IMG/VR virus record: IMGVR_UViG_2531839178_000019
Location: 1-18,346 of that record
Direction: 5' to 3' (one strand)
DNA: 18,346 nt
From: a virus
Taxonomy: Duplodnaviria > Heunggongvirae > Uroviricota > Caudoviricetes
Position 1 is the stretch's first letter; each line of letters begins with the position of its first letter. The notes under the pieces are model-generated. The model was not told where the DNA came from, did not search any database, and worked only from the letters and a program-made list of their open reading frames with translations. The translations under genes and the position numbers were made by a program. This document shows positions 1 through 18,346 of this stretch, one piece after another.

Positions 1-378
1 TTACTCAACGTCAAACGCCCGAATTGAAGCCAAATCATCCAGACCGCTCAGCTCCTCTTTCATTTCACGCTGACGGCGATAAATCTCGTCATTGCGCTCA
101 ACCTGTGCCTGAGCCATTGCTGCCGCCAGTTCTTCCAGTTCCGGCATCGACAGTTTCACCTGCTGATTATCCGCATCACTCCACACCATATGTGTTTGTG
201 CCGCGACAGATTTTGCCAGCATGACCACCGGGGACAGGCGGCCCAGTGAGTCGGGGCCAGCATTCCAGATACGACCGTTCCATTCAAACGTGAACGGCTT
301 CGCCTCCTGTTCTGTGCGCCATGCTTCAATTTCCTGACGCCTGGCCTCTCTGGCCGCTTCCAGCATTTCTGGTGTCAC
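1..378 (-). CDS. Putative tail fiber assembly (chaperone)-like protein, C-terminal reading frame; the probable N-terminal segment lies upstream (about 503-563) in another frame
   Basis: ORF ends with TAA at 1-3. It sits directly downstream of the side tail fiber gene, where tfa lies in lambda. No Shine-Dalgarno precedes the in-frame GTG (376-378) or ATG (364-366), whereas the neighbouring frame has GAGGAA-N6-GTG at 561-563. The two frames meet at a 7-nt homopolymer at 496-502. Confidence 0.45.
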   Translation of the reverse strand: MTPEMLEAAREARRQEIEAWRTEQEAKPFTFEWNGRIWNAGPDSLGRLSPVVMLAKSVAAQTHMVWSDADNQQVKLSMPELEELAAAMAQAQVERNDEIYRRQREMKEELSGLDDLASIRAFDVE

Positions 379-573
379 AGTGAATGGGGCTATCTCACCC
401 CATTTGCCGCTTTGCAGTTCCTGCCAGATTTGCTGCCCCGTCGGAGCGACATCATCAGCGGTGGCTGTGTAGGGGACTGCCTGGTCCCTGTCGTCAAAAA
501 AACGTCACAGTCTACTGCGCCACTTTCGGTATAACGGGGATTAATGATTTTTTTAATTTCCACGGTGCATTCC

Positions 574-1989
574 TCACGATGTGCGAATAAAAAGCCCGGG
601 CATTGCGCCAGAGACATGTGCATCCGGCACCCCGGACAGGGCGCAATATGACCCCGGTAATGAATGCTCTGAACATCCCGTAATGAAAAATTGTGGGGAT
701 GCTATATACGTTCCGGTGGGAGTACTGGGCACTGAAATCCCCACCGGTCCCAGTCGTGAGCCTCTGTATGACTGCCCCCTGACAAGTCTGATGACTTTAT
801 CACCGTCAGCTTCTCCCTGGTACGCAGCAATAATCAGCCCGCCAATGTCAGGGTCTCCCCATCTGTTGCGGACAGAGCTCGCCACGATTCTGTAAATAAT
901 ATCTTCTGTGGTTATATTTATTTTCACCCAGCCAGTCAGTCTGGATATGGGCCAGTAGCAGTAGCGGGTGTGATAAATGGGGCCGTTAATGCCGTAAAAA
1001 GTAAGGGATTTGGCTCTGTACCTCGGTTCTGTTGTCTCAGGGCGTGCATCAGTCCACCGGATGCTGAGCACCCCTTCAAACCGTGTGTCGGGTATGATGA
1101 TGTCGTAGGGGCCAGCAACGGAATATTCACCTGGCAGCGCATTCCTTACCCAGGCCAGGAAATCACTCTTAGTGTCAAAACGGATAACATCTTCAGGCAG
1201 AAAAGCACGCCCAAAGCCGAATGCGCCGGGTATCGCCAGACGGCCTTTTGTCCGGTCGTAAATGTCGCTCTGTGCTTCCATCGTGGCCGCACTTTTCAGC
1301 CCCAGATTATCCCGGGACTTCTGTTGTGCCTTTTCGCCTGCTGCTGCGATTTCTGACAGATGGTTAGCCATTTTCAGAGTGCCGGTCAGCGCAGCATCAA
1401 TGTCATTTTTGGCCTGTTCTGCTGCGCGGGCATAACCTGCGGCATCCTGTGCGCTCTGTCCGGCTGCGGCTGCATTTGCTCCTGTGCTTGTCACATCTTC
1501 CGCAGTGGCCTTTCTGTCCTCAGCTGTGACGGTTGCATCCTGTCGGGCTTTCTCCGCAAAACGTTGTGCATCATCACGGGCCGTTGCGGCTGCCGCCACA
1601 TCCTGCGCCGTCTGCTGTGCGTTTCCGGCTGCAGCCCCGGCACTCTGCTGCGCCTGCGCCACCATTTCCTCAAAGCGCTTCATCACCTCCGGACGTAAAT
1701 CACCATCCTTTGGTGCATTCAGAAACGCGTTCAGTGTCCCCGGTGCATCAGTCGGTGCCACATCAATATCCCCGACACGGGTTGGCTGCCAGCCGTTACA
1801 GTGAAGCGCAACCTCGTAATACCCCGGCTCAGCCTCAATCACATAAGCACCGTTATTGTCCGTCACGCAAGTGGCAACAACGTGTGCCACAACGGTCGGA
1901 CTGGTTCTTCTGGCCCGCAGTTCAATCGCACAATTTACGACAGGTTTACCCGCCCCATCTTTCAGTACACCTGAAATCTTTACTGCCAT
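574..1989 (-). CDS. Side tail fiber protein (Stf-like): conserved N-terminal domain, Ala/Gln-rich coiled-coil stalk, divergent C-terminal globular domain
   Basis: 471-aa ORF starting at ATG 1987-1989 (MAVKISGVLKDG...), preceded by GGGGTGA. The first ~100 aa match the N-terminal domain recalled for lambdoid Stf/StfR proteins. The track ORF start at 2031 is an upstream in-frame extension without an RBS. Confidence 0.8.
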   Translation of the reverse strand: MAVKISGVLKDGAGKPVVNCAIELRARRTSPTVVAHVVATCVTDNNGAYVIEAEPGYYEVALHCNGWQPTRVGDIDVAPTDAPGTLNAFLNAPKDGDLRPEVMKRFEEMVAQAQQSAGAAAGNAQQTAQDVAAAATARDDAQRFAEKARQDATVTAEDRKATAEDVTSTGANAAAAGQSAQDAAGYARAAEQAKNDIDAALTGTLKMANHLSEIAAAGEKAQQKSRDNLGLKSAATMEAQSDIYDRTKGRLAIPGAFGFGRAFLPEDVIRFDTKSDFLAWVRNALPGEYSVAGPYDIIIPDTRFEGVLSIRWTDARPETTEPRYRAKSLTFYGINGPIYHTRYCYWPISRLTGWVKINITTEDIIYRIVASSVRNRWGDPDIGGLIIAAYQGEADGDKVIRLVRGQSYRGSRLGPVGISVPSTPTGTYIASPQFFITGCSEHSLPGSYCALSGVPDAHVSGAMPGLFIRTS

Positions 1990-8245: not shown

Positions 8246-8574
8246 CAGTTCACCACCTGTTCAAAATCGGCCGTTACAGTCACCCATAACGCCCCCACGC
8301 TTGCCGACCATTTACGACAAACCACCCTGATCAGTTTCCAGTCATAAGGTGGCGTCCACTGAAATGCGCGGACGCCACCGTGCCGTTCCAGAAAGGCTTT
8401 TAAAGATGGGTGTTCACCTTTACGAACACGTATCGTCACGCTGTAAGTCGACAACTGGTTATTCAGTCCCGCCGCACGACGCTGTTCATAACCATCGCCC
8501 AGCTTCACTGTCACCACTTTCGGCTCTGATACCACATTCATATCCGGGCGCACTTTCCAGTGAAACGTCTCCAT
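8245..8574 (-). CDS. M: Minor tail protein M
   Basis: 109-aa ORF matching lambda M in length and sequence (…GDGY.QR…FEQVVN). Its ATG shares one base with the H stop codon (TAATG). Confidence 0.95.
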   Translation of the reverse strand: METFHWKVRPDMNVVSEPKVVTVKLGDGYEQRRAAGLNNQLSTYSVTIRVRKGEHPSLKAFLERHGGVRAFQWTPPYDWKLIRVVCRKWSASVGALWVTVTADFEQVVN

Positions 8575-11500
8575 TACCGGTATGCTCCACTTAACCGGCC
8601 ACCATCACGGGCCTGCTGTTGCATAAAGTCCGCGGCCGCTTTTTTCCCGAGGTCATAAACCACCTTCAGGGCAGCCGGACCTATCTGCCCGTTCGTGCCG
8701 TCGTTATTGATCTCAATGTTGTACTGCGGGGCAAACATCACCATGCCTGAACCACCAGTATCCGCCACAACCCCCAGCTTACCATCAGCACCGCGACGCA
8801 GTGGCAGAATGGCTTCAGGTCCCGCTTCCCCCATCACACCCGCGCCTTTTGCAAAAGCAAAAAACGTCGGACGGTTAACCACCGTGCCACTGTAGCGACT
8901 CAAATCAGCAGACTGGTAAACACCGCCATCAGCATTAGTCGTGAAGCCGAATAAAGAACCGACGCCCTTTACCGCCTGCATCATGGCCATCTGTGCCATA
9001 ATTCTGGCCATATCTGACAACAGGGAAGAGGTGAAGGATTTAAAATTCAGCTTACCGGTGGTACAGAATGTCGCCAGTGCATTACCGGCACTGCTGAATG
9101 CCACTGTAAACATCTGTTCTGCCGTTCCCGCCGCATTATCCGCATCCGCCGTAAAATTCTGAAACGCCCGCATGGCACCGTTTTTCCAGTCGCCCTGCGC
9201 CACTTCCAGTTCCTGCCAGTAGCGTTTGTTTTCATTCAGTTGTCGCTTCAGGCTCCCCTTCAGCACCTCCTCAGCCCTCCGGTAGTCCTCCGTCCCGTAA
9301 GTGCCTTTCTGGCGACTGTCATTCTCAAGCTGTTGCAACTGTTGCCGGTATTCCTGCCGGATGCGCAACTGTGCCTGGTAGCGCTGCCGCTGCTTATCCC
9401 CCATACCTGCAGTGGCAATATCCAGATTGTGCTGCTCACGCAGTGCACGTTCTTTGTCTGCCAGCTGGCTGGTCAGCTGAACCGTTTTTTTCTCAGGTCG
9501 TTAAGCGCTGTCTGTTTCTGCAGCTCCTGCTGTTTCACATCCAGCAGCGTCAGCGCCTGAATCAGCTCATTCTTACGGGCCAGCACACTCTTTTCATCTG
9601 CCGTCAGCTTTTTCCCGTCCAGGTCGCTGATGCGCTGCTGCAGGGCCAGAAGCTGTTTATGCGCTTCAGTCATCCTTTCAGTGGCAATGCCTGCTGACTG
9701 TCTGGCAGCAGCAATCTGCCCTTCCACCTGTGCCTGCTGCTGACTGTACTGCAGCAATAACCGGGTGGCCTCATCATTACGGGTTGCCCGTGTATTTTTC
9801 TTAATGGCTTTTTCGTAACGTTCATTTTCACGCTGTATCGCCGCATCCCTGACAGCCTGGTCGGCGTACTGCATGGCATTAATACGCGCAATTTCCCGCT
9901 GATGTCGTGCAGCTTCCGTTTCATTCATCCGGTTCAGCGCGGCATTTTCAGCATTCCGGCGTTTCTGTTGCTCCTGGTAATTCCGTTCTGCCTGCGCTTT
10001 TGCATCCTGCAAATCCTTCCGGCGTTTTTTCTCCTGAAGATCGTTAAGACGCTGCTGATCGTACTCCACCTGTGTGGAGGCGTTTGTCCACGGATATTTT
10101 TTCGCGCGCTGAATTTTTTCCTGTAACGCATCAATCTGCGCATCCAGCGAGTCTTCACGACCAATATTCATGGCCGCATCCCAGAACTGCTTCCACCAGT
10201 CAGACAAGGTTTGCAGCGTACTACCCAGCGCATTGAGATTATTATCAATATCAGATGTGCGTTTACCGGTTTCCTCTGCCAGCGCAGACATGGCGATCCG
10301 GGCCGCATCACTGGACCGCCCCTGCTCCCCAAGGACGCGTATCTGCTCAAGCTGAGTGGCAGTCAAAAAATGCAGCGCATTGTCCAGCGCCTTCGCGGCA
10401 TTTACAGGATCATCCTTCAGCCGCTTAAACTGATTTATGGTATCGCTGACCGACTGGCCAACCGATCGCTCCATCTGTGCGGCAGCTTTCGCCACCATAC
10501 CAATATCGTTTCCATGAAATGCCCCACTGCCCACCACCTGTGCCAGCGCACCGGCTGCCGCATGTTGCGTGATACCATTCCCGGATATGGCCCGGCTGAG
10601 TTTCCACAACTGCCCGACAGTGACACCGGCATAATGTCCCGTCAGCGCCAGCTGACGGTTAAATTCCTCGCCCTCCTTCCGGCCGTCATGCCAGGCTTTA
10701 CCCAGACCCAGGACCGCCGCGACAAGTCCGCCAATAACGCCGCCAGTCATCATGCCTTTCGGCGACATCAGTGCGCCTGTCCATCCGGCACGGTTAGCCA
10801 GCGTTATCCCGGATCCCCTCAGCGCACCAAAATTGCCGCGCGCCATCTGACTGATTAACACCCCCAGCTCCCGCCGGGCTGCCGCACTTTTCAGCCCCAG
10901 CGAATGTGTGGCTTTTCCTGCCCGCTCCATTTTGCGGATATACACTTCTGCAGCACTGCTTACCCCCAGCTGAGCCGCCCTGGCGCGAAGCAACTCAGAA
11001 GACGACAGATTCTGGCGGGTTGCCTGCTCTTTAAGCTGGCGGATAAACGCCGCTTTCTGCCGGGTGGCCTGTTCCTCTGCCTGCGTCAGGGCACGGGTTT
11101 TCGCCGTGATCTCCGAAATCAGCGCCAGATAATCCTGCTGACCAACCCCGCCACTGTTTCTGGCCTGTCGGATCTGCTGCTGAATACGCTGTAATTCCTG
11201 AAGCCCCGCACCGGCCTGTTTCACACTGTCAATCTGGCGATAAAAGGCGGCAGCCGCTTTATCCTGCGCCTCCGCCAGTGCCCTGGCCTGCGCCTGTTCC
11301 TCGCGCATTTTCTGATTCAGGGCATCCACGCGCAGACGGGTTTGTTCCACCTCACGGGCCATGCGTTCATGAGCCCGTGCATTCTTCTCCACCGTCTGCG
11401 CATGGGCTGATGCTGCTGTTGCAGCCGAAGAAGCCGCCTGCATTGTCTGCCGGGCCGCCTGAGTCTGACGCTCCATAAAACGCTGCATACGGGCAGAAGA

Positions 11501-11614
11501 CCGTTCTGCATCGCTGGCTGCACCATTCAGAAGGTTTTTGATACGGGGAATTTCATTTTTAAACTCTGCCGCATCAATCCCCAAATCAATGACCAGGTTG
11601 GCTATCTGGTCCAT
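8574..11614 (-). pseudogene. H: Tail tape measure protein H, reading frame interrupted at an A7 tract (coding strand; plus-strand T7 at 9485-9491)
   Basis: N-terminal ORF from ATG 11612-11614 (MDQIANLVIDLGIDAAEF..., RBS GGAGGTG) stops at 9473-9475. The C-terminal 276-aa ORF (8574-9404) ends ...NNDGTNGQIGPAALKVVYD..., matching the lambda H C-terminus as recalled, and its frame is open upstream back to 9500. The two frames meet exactly at the A7 run. Confidence 0.85.
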
Positions 11615-11915
11615 AACGCACACCTCCGGAAATACCTTCCCCAAGATGCATCAGTTCTTCGTCCGTTCGCTCCGGTATCCCGTTCTCTTCCGGTAAAAGG
11701 CTGAAATCAGCCACCGCAGCATCGCTGCTGCCGGACACCATTCTCACGATCAATGCCTTCAGCGAGGCAAACTGCGCATCCATCCACACATCACTGAAGC
11801 TCTGCATCCGGAAATAATCGCCCCACTCACCAAGCTCAGTGGCCGACATATCCGACAGCATCCGCCGCCAGTCTGCCCGCCGGAACTCCCGGGCAAGCCG
11901 CATGACAAACTGCAT
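11586..11915 (-). CDS. T: Tail assembly protein T, the -1 frame extension expressed as the G-T fusion
   Basis: 109-aa ORF in the -1 frame relative to G; its frame is open upstream to 11948 and overlaps the G 3' end. G-T-H gene order as in lambda. Confidence 0.8.
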   Translation of the reverse strand: MQFVMRLAREFRRADWRRMLSDMSATELGEWGDYFRMQSFSDVWMDAQFASLKALIVRMVSGSSDAAVADFSLLPEENGIPERTDEELMHLGEGISGGVRYGPDSQPGH

Positions 11916-11923
11916 TTCCCGCG

Positions 11924-12310
11924 TCAGGACTTTTCCGGCGTCAGCGCCTCATGATCATCATCCCCGGCATTCTCAATGGTCCCCATACCGCTCAGCGACA
12001 GAACCCTCTCCGCCCCCGCGCCCAGCGCATCATACGACCATGTTGTCATAATGGATGCGCAAAGCGTCTCAACATCCTGAGACTGCTCAGCATTCCACAG
12101 TGAGCGGGAAACCAGCCAGGCATTGATATCCATTCCCATACGCAGAAAAGCAATCTGTCGTTCAGCCTCCGGCAGTTCTCCCTCCTGTGCATCAAACTTT
12201 GCCGTTCGCTGCTGAACAAACGTCAGATATTCAATTCTCTGCAGCCCGGACAGCTCACTGAGCACCACGGACTGTTTTTCATAATTAAACGTATCCTGTT
12301 TCAGAAACAT
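11924..12310 (-). CDS. G: Tail assembly chaperone G
   Basis: Start taken at ATG 12308-12310 (MFLKQDTF...SELSGLQRIEYL), resembling the lambda G N-terminus (MFLK...SELSALQRIEHL) as recalled. GGAG lies 6 nt upstream. Confidence 0.85.
   Translation of the reverse strand: MFLKQDTFNYEKQSVVLSELSGLQRIEYLTFVQQRTAKFDAQEGELPEAERQIAFLRMGMDINAWLVSRSLWNAEQSQDVETLCASIMTTWSYDALGAGAERVLSLSGMGTIENAGDDDHEALTPEKS
11930..11936 (-). other. Putative -1 ribosomal frameshift site for the G-T fusion (coding strand G_GAA_AAG)
   Basis: This is the only slippage-prone sequence inside the 33-nt G/T frame overlap (11916-11948). The lambda site recalled is G_GGA_AAG. Confidence 0.5.
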
Positions 12311-12325
12311 CATGTTCTCCGGATG

Positions 12326-12349
12326 CAAAAAGCCCCGGATAACCGGGGC
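12326..12349 (-). terminator. Rho-independent terminator/attenuator between V and G (minus-strand RNA GCCCCGG-UUAU-CCGGGGC followed by UUUUU)
   Basis: Perfect 7-bp GC-rich inverted repeat (12332-12338 / 12343-12349) with an A-run at 12327-12331 on the plus strand. Confidence 0.65.
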
Positions 12350-14734: not shown

Positions 14735-16535
14735 TTACGCCGTACATTTCACCAGGCCGCGGTGATCAACTGGCGCAACACCGGCGTCAATACGCACTTT
14801 CGTTGTCACGCCATCCACACTGAAGCCCTCCATCTGATCAATATATGGCGTATCCACACCGTTGAGATAAGCCACTTCAATCGTATCGGAGCCTTTGGAC
14901 GCAGCCAGGTAGAAGGTGGTCTGGCTGTTATCATCAAGACGAGGCTCTGCAATAACGGTCGCAAAATCTTTCACCGGGTTAATAATACCGGCGTTAATGT
15001 CAGCCCCCTTGACACTTGAGGAGCGAATGACCTGGTTAGCAACAGACTCCATCGCCGTCGGTACCAGTACGAACGCAGGACGAATATTCAGATGACGCTC
15101 CCCCTCTTTCTGAACACGCATCAACTGGCGGGCTTTATCCAGCGATGCCACGTCCATTGCAGCGCTCTCCAGTACGTTTGCATGTTTCGCTTTATCGAAC
15201 AGACTTACATTATCTGTGGAGATTTTCGGGTTAGACGTCAGAATGGCATAAACCAGATCGGCAATAGTGGATTTCGCCGCACGGCCCAGTTTCATCGGGA
15301 CATCGGTCAGCATATTCAGATCATCGTTGATAATGGCCTGACGGGTGATACTGAACAGTTCACCATAGGTCGCCAGTGCAATCGTGGCCTGTTTATCTCC
15401 GGTAGTAACGTATTTATATTCCGCCCCTTCACGCACCTGACGCAGAGCACTGAAGCCCCCCATACCCACACGATGGGCAATTTTAAAATCAGACAGCTGA
15501 CCTTTCCGCGTCCACTGTTCATAGGTTTCAGGGGCATCTTCCCAGCCCTGCAGAATGGCTTTGTTCGCAACATCCAGCAGAATATTACCGAAGTCAGACG
15601 TACTGTGTGTGAACGCCGCACCGACCATCTGCATCGGGTTATAACCGGAAACCCCAATACCCCGTTCAGTCAGTGACATACGGGCATATTCACGCAGGGT
15701 CATCCCGTTGTAGACATTATCACGTTCAGTTTTTTCAAACCCGGCACGCGCCATCAGCGCCTGGCGGATCCCGTCCCCCACAAAATTACCGTTTCCGGCA
15801 TAAATATGGGCCGGGGTATTTTTATTTGATGGTGAAAATTCCTTACCCATTTCGTTAAGTAATTTCTCACGGGCCTGCTCAAGCGAGCACTCCGGCTCGG
15901 AAAGACAACTGGCCTGCAATGTCTGATAACGCCCGCCAAACATACCAAACAGTTCATTAATACCACTCACACGTGCTTTTTGCTCTGCCAGTACCTGCGC
16001 ACGGATACTGCTTTCATCTGCGGAAGGTGCATTTGTGGTGGTCACGGTTGTGGCAACCTGAGCCGTAGTCTGCTCCTGTGTCTGAGATGCAGTATTTTTG
16101 TTTTCAGGTTCACGCGTTGCACTGTTGCGTGGCGGAGTAATCATGTTTCGAATGGATTCCGGCATCTTTTTAAATTCCTCTGTACGTTTTGACTGAATAC
16201 ATGCCATTGCCTTAACGGCTGGCGTCACCTGATCAGCAAATCCATGTGCCAGACATTCGGCACCGGACATCCAGGTCTCATCCGCCAGCATGGCAGCAAC
16301 TTCATCGGTGGTTTTCCCGGTTTTCTGTGCATAAGCGGGTAACAGAACCGCCTCAACTTTATCGAGCAGGTCGGCATAGGTGCGCATGTCCTCCGCATCA
16401 CCGCCCGTAAAGCCAAATGGTTTATGAATCATCATGAAGGTGTTTTCCGGCATAATGACCGGGTTTCCCACCATCGCAATGACCGACGCCATTGATGCCG
16501 CCACACCGTCAACATAAACGGTAATGGACGCACCA
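14735..16535 (-). CDS. Prohead protease (ClpP/S49-like, C-terminal part) - scaffold linker - major capsid protein fusion; 5' end truncated by IS600
   Basis: Long ORF with the peptidase motif ...VYVDGVAASMASVIAMVG... near its 5' end, a Thr/Gln-rich linker and a capsid-like C-terminal domain. The reading frame runs upstream into the IS600 terminal sequence, so the track start at 16561 is a GTG inside the IS. Confidence 0.6.
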
Positions 16536-16862
16536 TGAGGTAGCCTGAGTTTAACGGACACTCCTTCCTGAAATAGAATGGCATCAGAAGGAGCTAATAA
16601 TGAGCAGAAAAACCCAACGTTACTCTAAAGAGTTCAAAGCCGAAGCTGTCAGAACGGTTCTTGAAAATCAACTTTCGATCAGTGAAGGCGCTTCCCGATT
16701 ATCCCTTCCTGAAGGCACTTTAGGACAATGGGTTGCCGCCGCCAGAAAAGGGCTCGGTACTCCTGGTTCCCGCACGGTGGCTGAACTGGAATCTGAAATT
16801 CTGCAACTGCGTAAGGCGTTAAATGAAGCTCGCCTTGAGCGAGATATATTAAAAAAAGCAAC
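16536..16862 (+). mobile_element. IS600-like (IS3 family) element, left ~327 bp only, interrupted by IS30
   Basis: Begins TGAGGTAGCCTGAG... about 64 bp before the orfA ATG (16600-16602), a layout typical of IS3-family left ends. The orfA product MSRKTQRYSKEFKAEAVRTVLENQLSISEGASRLSLPEGTLGQWV... matches IS600 OrfA as recalled. The left boundary is approximate. Confidence 0.7.
16600..16862 (+). pseudogene. IS600 orfA, 5' fragment (first ~88 codons), truncated by the IS30 insertion
   Basis: The helix-turn-helix OrfA sequence stops making sense after ...LERDILKKAT at the IS30 terminus (16863); the track ORF to 16950 reads through into the IS30 inverted repeat. Confidence 0.8.
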
Positions 16863-18083
16863 TGTAGATTCAATCTGTCAATGCAACACCCCTTTCAATT
16901 ATCTCTTTCGGTGTTTTGAACTTCAGTGTCTTTCTCGGTCTGTTGTTTAGCTGAGCAGCAACCAGATCTAGTTCATGTTGAGTATATTGGGCAAGACATG
17001 TCTTTTTAGGAAAGTACTGCCGAATTAGCCCATTTGTGTTCTCATTTGTTCCCCGCTGCCAAGGACTCTGAGGATCGCAGAAGTAAACTTTAACGCCGGT
17101 GCTGACAGTAAATTCTAGATGTCTGGCCAGTTCCATTCCTCTGTCCCATGTCAGCGATTTTCTGAGTTCTGACGGTAAACTCAGGAATTTGTCGGTAAGA
17201 GCCTGATTTACTGAGACAGTAATCTTTGCCCCTGAGTCTAAGGATGATCGTATAACGTGATTTTCGGTCTACAAGTGTGGCTATATGAGAGTTTTTGTAC
17301 CTGAGACTAAATCGCCCTCCCAATGCCCCAGAGAGCGTCTGTTATCGATATTTCGGGAACGTTCGTGAATTGGTGTTCCGTTCACTATGTTAATCGTACC
17401 TCTTTCGCCTTTGCGGGTATGACGCCTGCCATGGCGAAGGCTATGCGACCGTCGCAGATGCTGTATATTCAGGTGGTGTAGCGCTTCACGGCTACGAAAG
17501 TACAGCGTTTTATAAATTGTCTCAGGTGATATTCGCAGCGTTTTTTGACGTGGTTTTGTTCGCCTTAACCATCCTGATATTTGCTCTGGAGACCATTTCA
17601 TCTCCAGCTTTTCCAGAACAAGCTTTCGCAATGGTAAATTTTGATCCAGTAAGCACGGTTTTGGCCTTTTCGCCATTCTGTTGGCTCGGTTATTAGCATC
17701 AACAGCTTTGTAATAGCGTCTGCCCCGATTACGCTGAACTTCACGTGAGATCGTCGAAGGACTGCGATTCAGCGCAGTAGCTATCGCACGAATGCTCATT
17801 TTGGCTGACAAACCAGCTCGTATCTCCTCGCGCTCAGACAGTGTCAGGTGAGCTACAGCCCGCTTACGCTCATGGGGTTTTATGCCGCCAGTATCCCTTA
17901 ACATAGTGAAGATCGTTCCGGGTTTTGAACCCAGGATATTCGCTATTTCACTGAAGCCTGTTCCGTTCTTCCATAGTTCAAAAACAGAGGCTTTTTCCTC
18001 TGCTGTAAATGTTCGTCTCATTCAAAAAACCTCCGCGACCCCATGTTTTCACATAACTGTTGCGTTGACCAATTGAATCTACA
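16863..18083 (-). mobile_element. IS30, complete length (1221 bp) with imperfect ~25-bp terminal inverted repeats
   Basis: Termini TGTAGATTCAATCTGTCAATGCAAC (16863-16887) and reverse complement of 18059-18083, TGTAGATTCAATTGGTCAACGCAAC. Encodes an IS30-family DDE transposase on the minus strand. Confidence 0.9.
16870..18021 (-). pseudogene. insI: IS30 transposase, split into three ORFs by two compensating 1-bp indels
   Basis: ORFs 17281-18021 (MRRTFTAEEKASVFELWKNGTGF..., HTH), 17090-17323 (...NSHIATLVDRKSRYTIILRLRGKD...) and 16870-17136 (MELARHLEF...DPQSPWQRGTNENTNGLIRQYFPK...) together read as one IS30 transposase as recalled. Frame changes occur near the T5 run at 17292-17296 and near 17220. 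Confidence 0.8.
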
Positions 18084-18346
18084 GTTGCTTTTTTAATATA
18101 TCTCGCTCAAGGCGAGCTTCATTTAACGCCTTACGCAGTTGCAGAATTTCAGATTCCAGTTCAGCCACCGTGCGGGAGCCAGGGGTACCGAGCCCTTTTT
18201 CTGGCGGCGGTAACCCATTGTCCTAAAGTGCCTTCAGGAAGGGATAATCGGGAAGCGCCTTCACTGATCGAAAGTTGATTTTCAAGAACCGTTCTGACAG
18301 CTTCGGCTTTGAACTCTTTAGAGTAACGTTGGGTTTTTCTGCTCAT
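18084..18346 (-). mobile_element. Second IS600-like fragment (orfA 5' part) in inverted orientation, continuing beyond the window; orfA frameshifted
   Basis: Reverse complement of 18084-18346 is identical to 16600-16862 except for 3 substitutions and one extra A (A5 versus A4), which shifts the orfA frame after ...WVTAARK. The orfA ATG is at 18344-18346. Confidence 0.8.

Follow-up and report, generated by a model that had tools for sequence, protein, structure and literature searches.

The DUF4376 gene at the left end of the analysed DNA, a stretch of 18,346 nt that is referred to here as the window, is split between two reading frames at a run of seven T residues on its coding strand. The split is quite probably a homopolymer-length sequencing error in a draft assembly of Shigella boydii 965-58, as judged for this particular T7 run by comparison with related sequences. 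The real sequence at window positions 496–502 is most likely T8. This would give one intact DUF4376 protein of 187 aa, translated from the GTG at position 563 behind a GAGGAA sequence, and no frameshifting mechanism would be involved. Because the T7 run is found in one assembly only, that draft has an error signature at homopolymers, and the tape-measure gene H has an A8 to A7 change, the T7 is most likely a miscall.

Positions of the reading frames and of the signals around the run are given in Table 1. The GAGGAA ribosome-binding site is overlapped by the TGA stop codon of the tail-fibre gene (576–574), and the GTG start of the DUF4376 gene is 10 nt after this stop. From GTG 563 the upstream frame reads MEIKKIINPRYTESGAVDCDVFL through the T7 run and is then out of register. 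Its unrepaired product is 57 aa, which includes 34 out-of-frame codons before the stop. The downstream frame is open from position 504 to the TAA at 3–1. The earliest ATG, GTG or TTG in this frame is GTG 378, which gives an ORF of 125 aa, and the next is ATG 366 (121 aa); no Shine-Dalgarno sequence is present before either of these internal starts. Joining the frames at the T7 run gives a protein of exactly 187 aa.

An earlier note on this DNA, made from the sequence alone, had proposed that GAGGAA-N6-GTG opens the adjacent frame, which stays open through the run, and that the 125-aa ORF lacks a ribosome-binding site and lies in a frame closed by a stop at 505–507. All of these features and coordinates hold on the sequence. 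The product of ~187 aa that was predicted from GTG 563 agrees with the joined frames and with the annotated protein EIQ29089.1, which corresponds to the T8-repaired form. The N-terminal piece, taken to be ~21 codons, is 23 codons by the present count. The window contains five homopolymer runs of at least 7 bases and none of at least 8 bases. Two of the five, those at 496–502 and at 9485–9491 in gene H, lie at the only two frame-breaking indels relative to related loci in 12.5 kb. As the two long runs are exactly at the only two frame-breaking indels, the link between runs and frame breaks is not due to chance.

Table 1. Features at and around the homopolymer runs (window coordinates)
Feature	Position	Strand	Basis or comment
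Tail-fibre ORF, 485 aa	2031–574	minus	ORF list; TGA stop at 576–574
Shine-Dalgarno GAGGAA	575–570	minus	Sequence and alignment of start regions
GTG start, DUF4376 gene	563–561	minus	Six bases 3' of GAGGAA
DUF4376 gene, first 23 codons	563–495 (GTG 563–561 to TTG 497–495)	minus	Translation
TGA closing the downstream frame	507–505	minus	Two bases before the T7 run
T7 run, coding strand (A7 on plus strand)	502–496	minus	Site of the missing base
Stop of the upstream frame	392–390	minus	ORF list and translation
DUF4376 gene, last 164 codons and TAA	495–1 (TAA 3–1)	minus	Frame with codon starts divisible by 3
A7 run (coding strand) in tape-measure gene H	9485–9491	minus	A8 in relatives

Outside the 965-58 draft, the length of the run was determined at 35 loci; it is T8 in 33, T9 in two and T7 in none. 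The loci are from EIEC complete genomes, Shigella complete genomes, drafts of Illumina size and metagenome contigs. The census also draws on a further ten loci in complete Shigella genomes, on two small drafts and three metagenome contigs, and on 13 loci obtained by scanning a genome collection. Ten EIEC complete genomes, with 93–98% identity, have one extra base, i.e., T8, and an intact DUF4376 protein is annotated. The complete S. boydii genome GCA_002968135.1 has T8 in all three of its copies, and the exact tail-fibre protein of the window is also encoded in this genome. A homologue with 78% identity (locus L003) has the sequence GAC GTT TGG TTT GAC at this site; other bases break up the run here, and the reading frame continues through it (TTTGGTTT in frame). 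The proposal that a single gene is split at a T7 run one base short is thus supported by the comparison with intact relatives, which have T8 and an intact protein that starts in the upstream frame.

The two T9 runs are at the same site in the complete genomes L019 (CP054913.1, about position 17730) and L030 (CP178302.1, 564–595). In L018 (CP102221.1, about position 17680) there is an A6 where the others have A7, in the neighbouring GAAATTAAAAAAATC run. The DUF4376 gene call is missing in L018 and L019. Homopolymers in this gene vary in several assemblies, from either real slippage or long-read errors, and the T9 runs in two assemblies together with the A6 in L018 imply that the tract is generally prone to error or mutation.

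The tape-measure gene H, which the earlier note had described as having the same pattern of a heptanucleotide one base short, is a second case. It is split into ORFs of 723 aa and 276 aa (9473–11644 and 8574–9404). The run in gene H is A8 in all 12 other loci, where the protein is intact at 1013 aa, and is A7 only in the window (13 loci compared).

Over 10,366 bases, the window and contig AKNA01000051.1 of the S. boydii 965-58 draft (GCA_000268145.1) have the same sequence (100% identity). The T7 run is confined to this assembly, and to two of its three copies of the gene. The second copy, on AKNA01000047.1, also has T7 and differs from the window copy at 12 positions over 1,692 bases. The third, on AKNA01000058.1, has T8 and encodes the intact 187-aa protein EIQ29089.1, which is identical to the joined window protein except for F instead of L at residue 23. 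The 121-aa downstream ORF is annotated only in S. boydii 965-58, at two loci (EIQ30570.1 and EIQ31040.1, 2012 annotation), and other short members of the protein cluster are partial proteins at contig ends. Homologues of ~120 aa, which the earlier note had regarded as the finding that would speak against a split gene, are thus represented only by the two frameshifted copies in the 965-58 draft.

The copies also differ in the 3' half of the gene. Fourteen substitutions relative to the positional orthologue L005 are clustered at window positions 88–226 (10141–10279 in L006, the window's contig). They set this half of the window gene apart from L005, which is in the complete S. boydii genome, yet the window is an exact match to the paralogue L010. 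All three draft copies have one allele of this half of the gene; the complete genome GCA_002968135.1 has two alleles. The shared allele in the draft could result from gene conversion or from repeat copies that were mixed when the draft was assembled.

Comparison of the draft with the near-identical complete genome GCA_002968135.1 was over three locus pairs of about 25 kb and shows 9 one-base indels in total. L011 of the draft and L010 align over 13.2 kb with 3 substitutions and four indels (T6 to T5, A5 to A4, G4 to G5 and T8 to T7), and all four break ORFs that are intact in the complete genome. L006 and L005 align over 7.5 kb with 17 substitutions, 14 of them clustered, and two indels: the T8 to T7 change, which splits the DUF4376 gene, and a G5 to G4 change, which is intergenic. 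The third pair, L007 and L010, covers 4.3 kb, i.e., a 2.9 kb block with the indels and a 1.4 kb IS block, with 7 substitutions (6 and 1, respectively) and three indels: a T8 to T7 change in the DUF4376 gene, a T5 to T6 change, and one T added next to a lone T. Two of these three are paired insertions that split an ipaH gene. Genic indels break ORFs in the draft only and never in the complete genome.

The agreement in run length was counted for runs of 4 to 8 bases in the reference. The draft has the same length at 263 of 264 runs of 4 bases (two further runs have substitutions), 90 of 93 of 5 bases, 25 of 26 of 6 bases and all 8 of 7 bases. Only one of four runs of 8 bases has the same length, and the other three are contracted to 7. 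The errors in 8-base runs are all contractions, and four of five such runs are shortened if gene H is counted. The homopolymer discrepancies found so far all lie in prophage and ipaH DNA that is present in several copies; the comparison of L011 with L010 also covers about 7 kb of single-copy chromosome, which has no such discrepancy. Indels in homopolymers, a steep dependence on length, contraction of the long runs and ORF breaks in the draft only are all observed directly here, and the number of indels comes close to that of substitutions. At the level of the assembled sequence, this combination is the signature of flow-based sequencing error and not what divergence would produce between genomes about 0.02% apart. 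It resembles the under-calls of pyrosequencing or ion-semiconductor drafts, where single-base indels occur only in homopolymers, errors become steeply more frequent as runs get longer, long runs are contracted, and spurious frameshifts are missing in finished relatives; for this draft the likeness is judged from the assembly. A literature search on strain 965-58, its accession and its sequencing platform gave nothing relevant.

When analyzed as one protein of 187 aa, as the earlier note had suggested, the joined frames match PF14301 (DUF4376) at residues 70–175 with a score of 62.4 bits, against a cut-off of 25 (Pfam scan). Residues 1–187 match positions 4–190 of the 194 positions of phrog_1141 (E = 1.5e-88). 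Since phrog_1141 is matched end to end, the segment upstream of the run is part of the normal architecture of the family. Residues 24–66, which are upstream of the internal start, are kept in homologues and are covered by phrog_1141. The N-terminal 23 residues are those of the intact relatives except for the last, which is F in the relatives, and the N-terminus is also conserved in the 78%-identical homologue L003. The gene is directly downstream of the tail-fibre gene, an arrangement that all related loci share. Searches of NCBIfam with the DUF4376 protein gave no family, and a sequence search of the PDB gave no meaningful relative.

The earlier note had termed the gene Tfa-like. Lambda Tfa proteins (Caudo_TAP, PF02413) have a similar size and a similar genomic position after stf, but they are a different family from the DUF4376 protein. 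Caudo_TAP was not found in the joined protein, where a Pfam scan with E up to 0.1 gives only DUF4376, and membership in the lambda Tfa family is ruled out by the lack of a PF02413 match. In the sister locus L010, a Caudo_TAP gene follows the other fibre gene. A functional model is gp27 of Alteromonas phage V22, described as a new type of tail-fibre chaperone; it has 195 aa and a C-terminal DUF4376 domain, and its gene comes right behind that of the fibre (PMC7289586, PMC10579305). V22 gp27 and A5 gp9 share with the Shigella protein a length of ~190–240 aa, the C-terminal DUF4376 and a location immediately downstream of the fibre gene that they serve (PMC7289586, PMC10579305), but the relation to the Shigella protein is distant and is seen at the domain level only. 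From position, size and domain, and with the chaperone role taken from V22 gp27, we infer that the protein may be the cognate DUF4376-type chaperone or assembly partner of the tail fibre. The term Tfa-like thus stands for size, position and the analogy with the V22 chaperone, but not for homology to lambda Tfa or Caudo_TAP; it is a fair functional analogy and not family membership.

Once one T is restored, the window protein has the same amino acid sequence as WP_000551127.1, WP_000551126.1 and EIQ29089.1 from Shigella and EIEC lambdoid prophages. The genes for these proteins likewise follow directly on a prophage tail-fibre gene, have an ipaH effector gene as a neighbour, and differ in having T8 in place of the T7 of the window record. 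Once repaired, the window gene is an ordinary one, for a DUF4376 protein that is already catalogued.

The start site of this protein differs between annotation and sequence conservation. The RefSeq annotation gives it 207 aa, with an ATG start that creates a 50-nt overlap with the fibre gene (window 563–623; L001 3078–3701; also L002 and L003), and two records begin the annotated protein at a non-canonical codon, ATA or ATC. The upstream ATG behind the 207-aa product is not conserved among homologues. All homologues, also the one with 78% identity, retain GAGGAA-N6-GTG, which gives proteins of 187–188 aa. The 207-aa start is probably a propagated start-site misannotation, and the GAGGAA-N6-GTG start (187 aa) looks more credible.

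The window represents a lambdoid tail module with genes Z, U, V, G, T, H, M, L, K, I, J, Lom, tail fibre and DUF4376. The tail fibre has a prophage tail fibre N-terminal domain (PF08400, E = 2e-48). At the other end of the window (14735–18346), an ORF for a fusion of ClpP protease and major capsid protein is truncated at the 5' end, and its Clp domain begins at profile position 75. The truncated ORF adjoins IS-type transposase ORFs (HTH_Tnp_1, HTH_38) and an IS600-like end at 18084–18346. Terminase and portal genes are absent here and are present in the EIEC relative L009. As the capsid-protease gene is truncated by IS elements and the terminase and portal genes are missing, the prophage is defective.

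Several other features of the module were observed. In the IS600-like segment (18084–18196) an A6 run of the window corresponds to A7 in the EIEC copy (TTAAAAAAAGC), and at a nearby run the window has A5 and the EIEC copy A4; these differences may be further homopolymer miscalls or may simply reflect another IS copy. The annotation of the EIEC transposase includes a programmed frameshift. At 11586–12328, the genes G (134 aa) and T (109 aa) for tail assembly chaperones have the usual overlap expected for the lambda-type G/GT –1 frameshift, and the sequence CCGGAAAAGTCCTGA is found near the end of G. A gene of the ipaH family of type III effector E3 ligases follows each copy of the fibre and DUF4376 genes on the opposite strand (L006 10545–12296; L001 3881–5596; L010 10804–12447). 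The tail end of the prophage is a carrier of ipaH cargo in Shigella and EIEC. The 485-aa tail fibre of the window is intact. Several complete Shigella genomes among L014–L021 have a 4-bp deletion of CTGG (window 932–935) that reduces the fibre to 367 aa, and real, lineage-specific decay of the module thus occurs elsewhere.

Such decay is the basis of a different explanation for the T7 run. A real T8 to T7 deletion by replication slippage in 965-58, which would make the DUF4376 gene a genuine pseudogene in a decaying, IS-truncated lambdoid prophage, is considered rather unlikely, but several observations fit it. Decaying, IS-truncated lambdoid prophages with pseudogenes are common in Shigella, and this prophage has no terminase and portal genes and a capsid-protease gene cut by IS elements. 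In a defective prophage the tail genes are under no selection, and a real inactivating mutation costs nothing. Runs of eight bases are natural hot spots of slippage. Other Shigella genomes have real-looking lesions in the module, e.g., the 4-bp tail-fibre deletion, a 1-bp insertion in J, and the T9 runs in L019 and L030. The clustering of the draft indels in prophage DNA would also result from relaxed selection on remnants. However, the same contraction is present in two paralogous copies that differ at 12 positions, which needs two events or gene conversion, and T7 is found in no other assembly. Contraction of four of five eight-base runs, with further indels in runs of 4–6 bases against 3 substitutions in 13.2 kb, is also far above the natural ratio of indels to substitutions, which is roughly 1:10 in E. 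coli mutation-accumulation data. The restriction of ORF breaks to the draft is a further argument against real mutation and favors the homopolymer error.

Two other explanations were considered. In programmed recoding, which is judged very improbable, the T7 would be real, and the full-length protein would arise either from a –1 shift of ribosomes on U_UUU_UUG or from slippage during transcription of the run, with one U added to part of the mRNA. The upstream frame does read T_TTT_TTG (501–495), a formal match to X_XXY_YYZ from which a –1 shift enters the downstream frame, and transcriptional slippage on a run has been reported for Shigella mxiE. But homologues do not share the two-frame arrangement: T8 read in a single frame is found at 33 loci and T9 at two, and L003 has an in-frame GTT TGG TTT. 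No stimulatory RNA structure was found, as the 80 nt after the run fold with –24 kcal/mol against a mean of –23.4 kcal/mol for shuffled sequences (z = –0.20), which is not above background. The heptamer is a poor bacterial slippery site, with UUG as an unfavorable codon for slippage in the A site, and runs of 7 bases allow hardly any slippage during transcription. Programmed –1 frameshifting is ruled out as a candidate by the non-conserved arrangement and the absence of structure above background. It is also highly doubtful that T7 is true in 965-58 and that a fraction of full-length DUF4376 protein is still made there by transcriptional or –1 ribosomal slippage. If such slippage was true, the run would be a strain-specific expression dimmer for a tail-fibre chaperone; homopolymer-dependent expression has been described for some Shigella type III secretion genes. 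The least probable explanation, for which almost no likelihood remains, is that there are two separate genes, i.e., a short upstream peptide and an independent protein of ~121–125 aa from GTG 378 or ATG 366. The 2012 draft annotation calls a 121-aa protein at both T7 copies, but both internal starts lack a ribosome-binding site, residues 24–66 are conserved in homologues and are within phrog_1141, and the 121-aa form is not found outside the 965-58 draft; the other short cluster members are partial proteins at contig ends. An independent gene of 121 or 125 aa is ruled out by the restriction of this form to the draft and by the internal starts without ribosome-binding sites.

With a homopolymer-length error as the probable cause of the split, the finding is mainly an issue of quality control, as three of four 8-base homopolymers are one base short in the part of the draft that was compared. 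Apparent gene splits at A/T runs in this record (in DUF4376, in H, and in other genes on sister contigs) should not be taken for pseudogenes or recoding sites.
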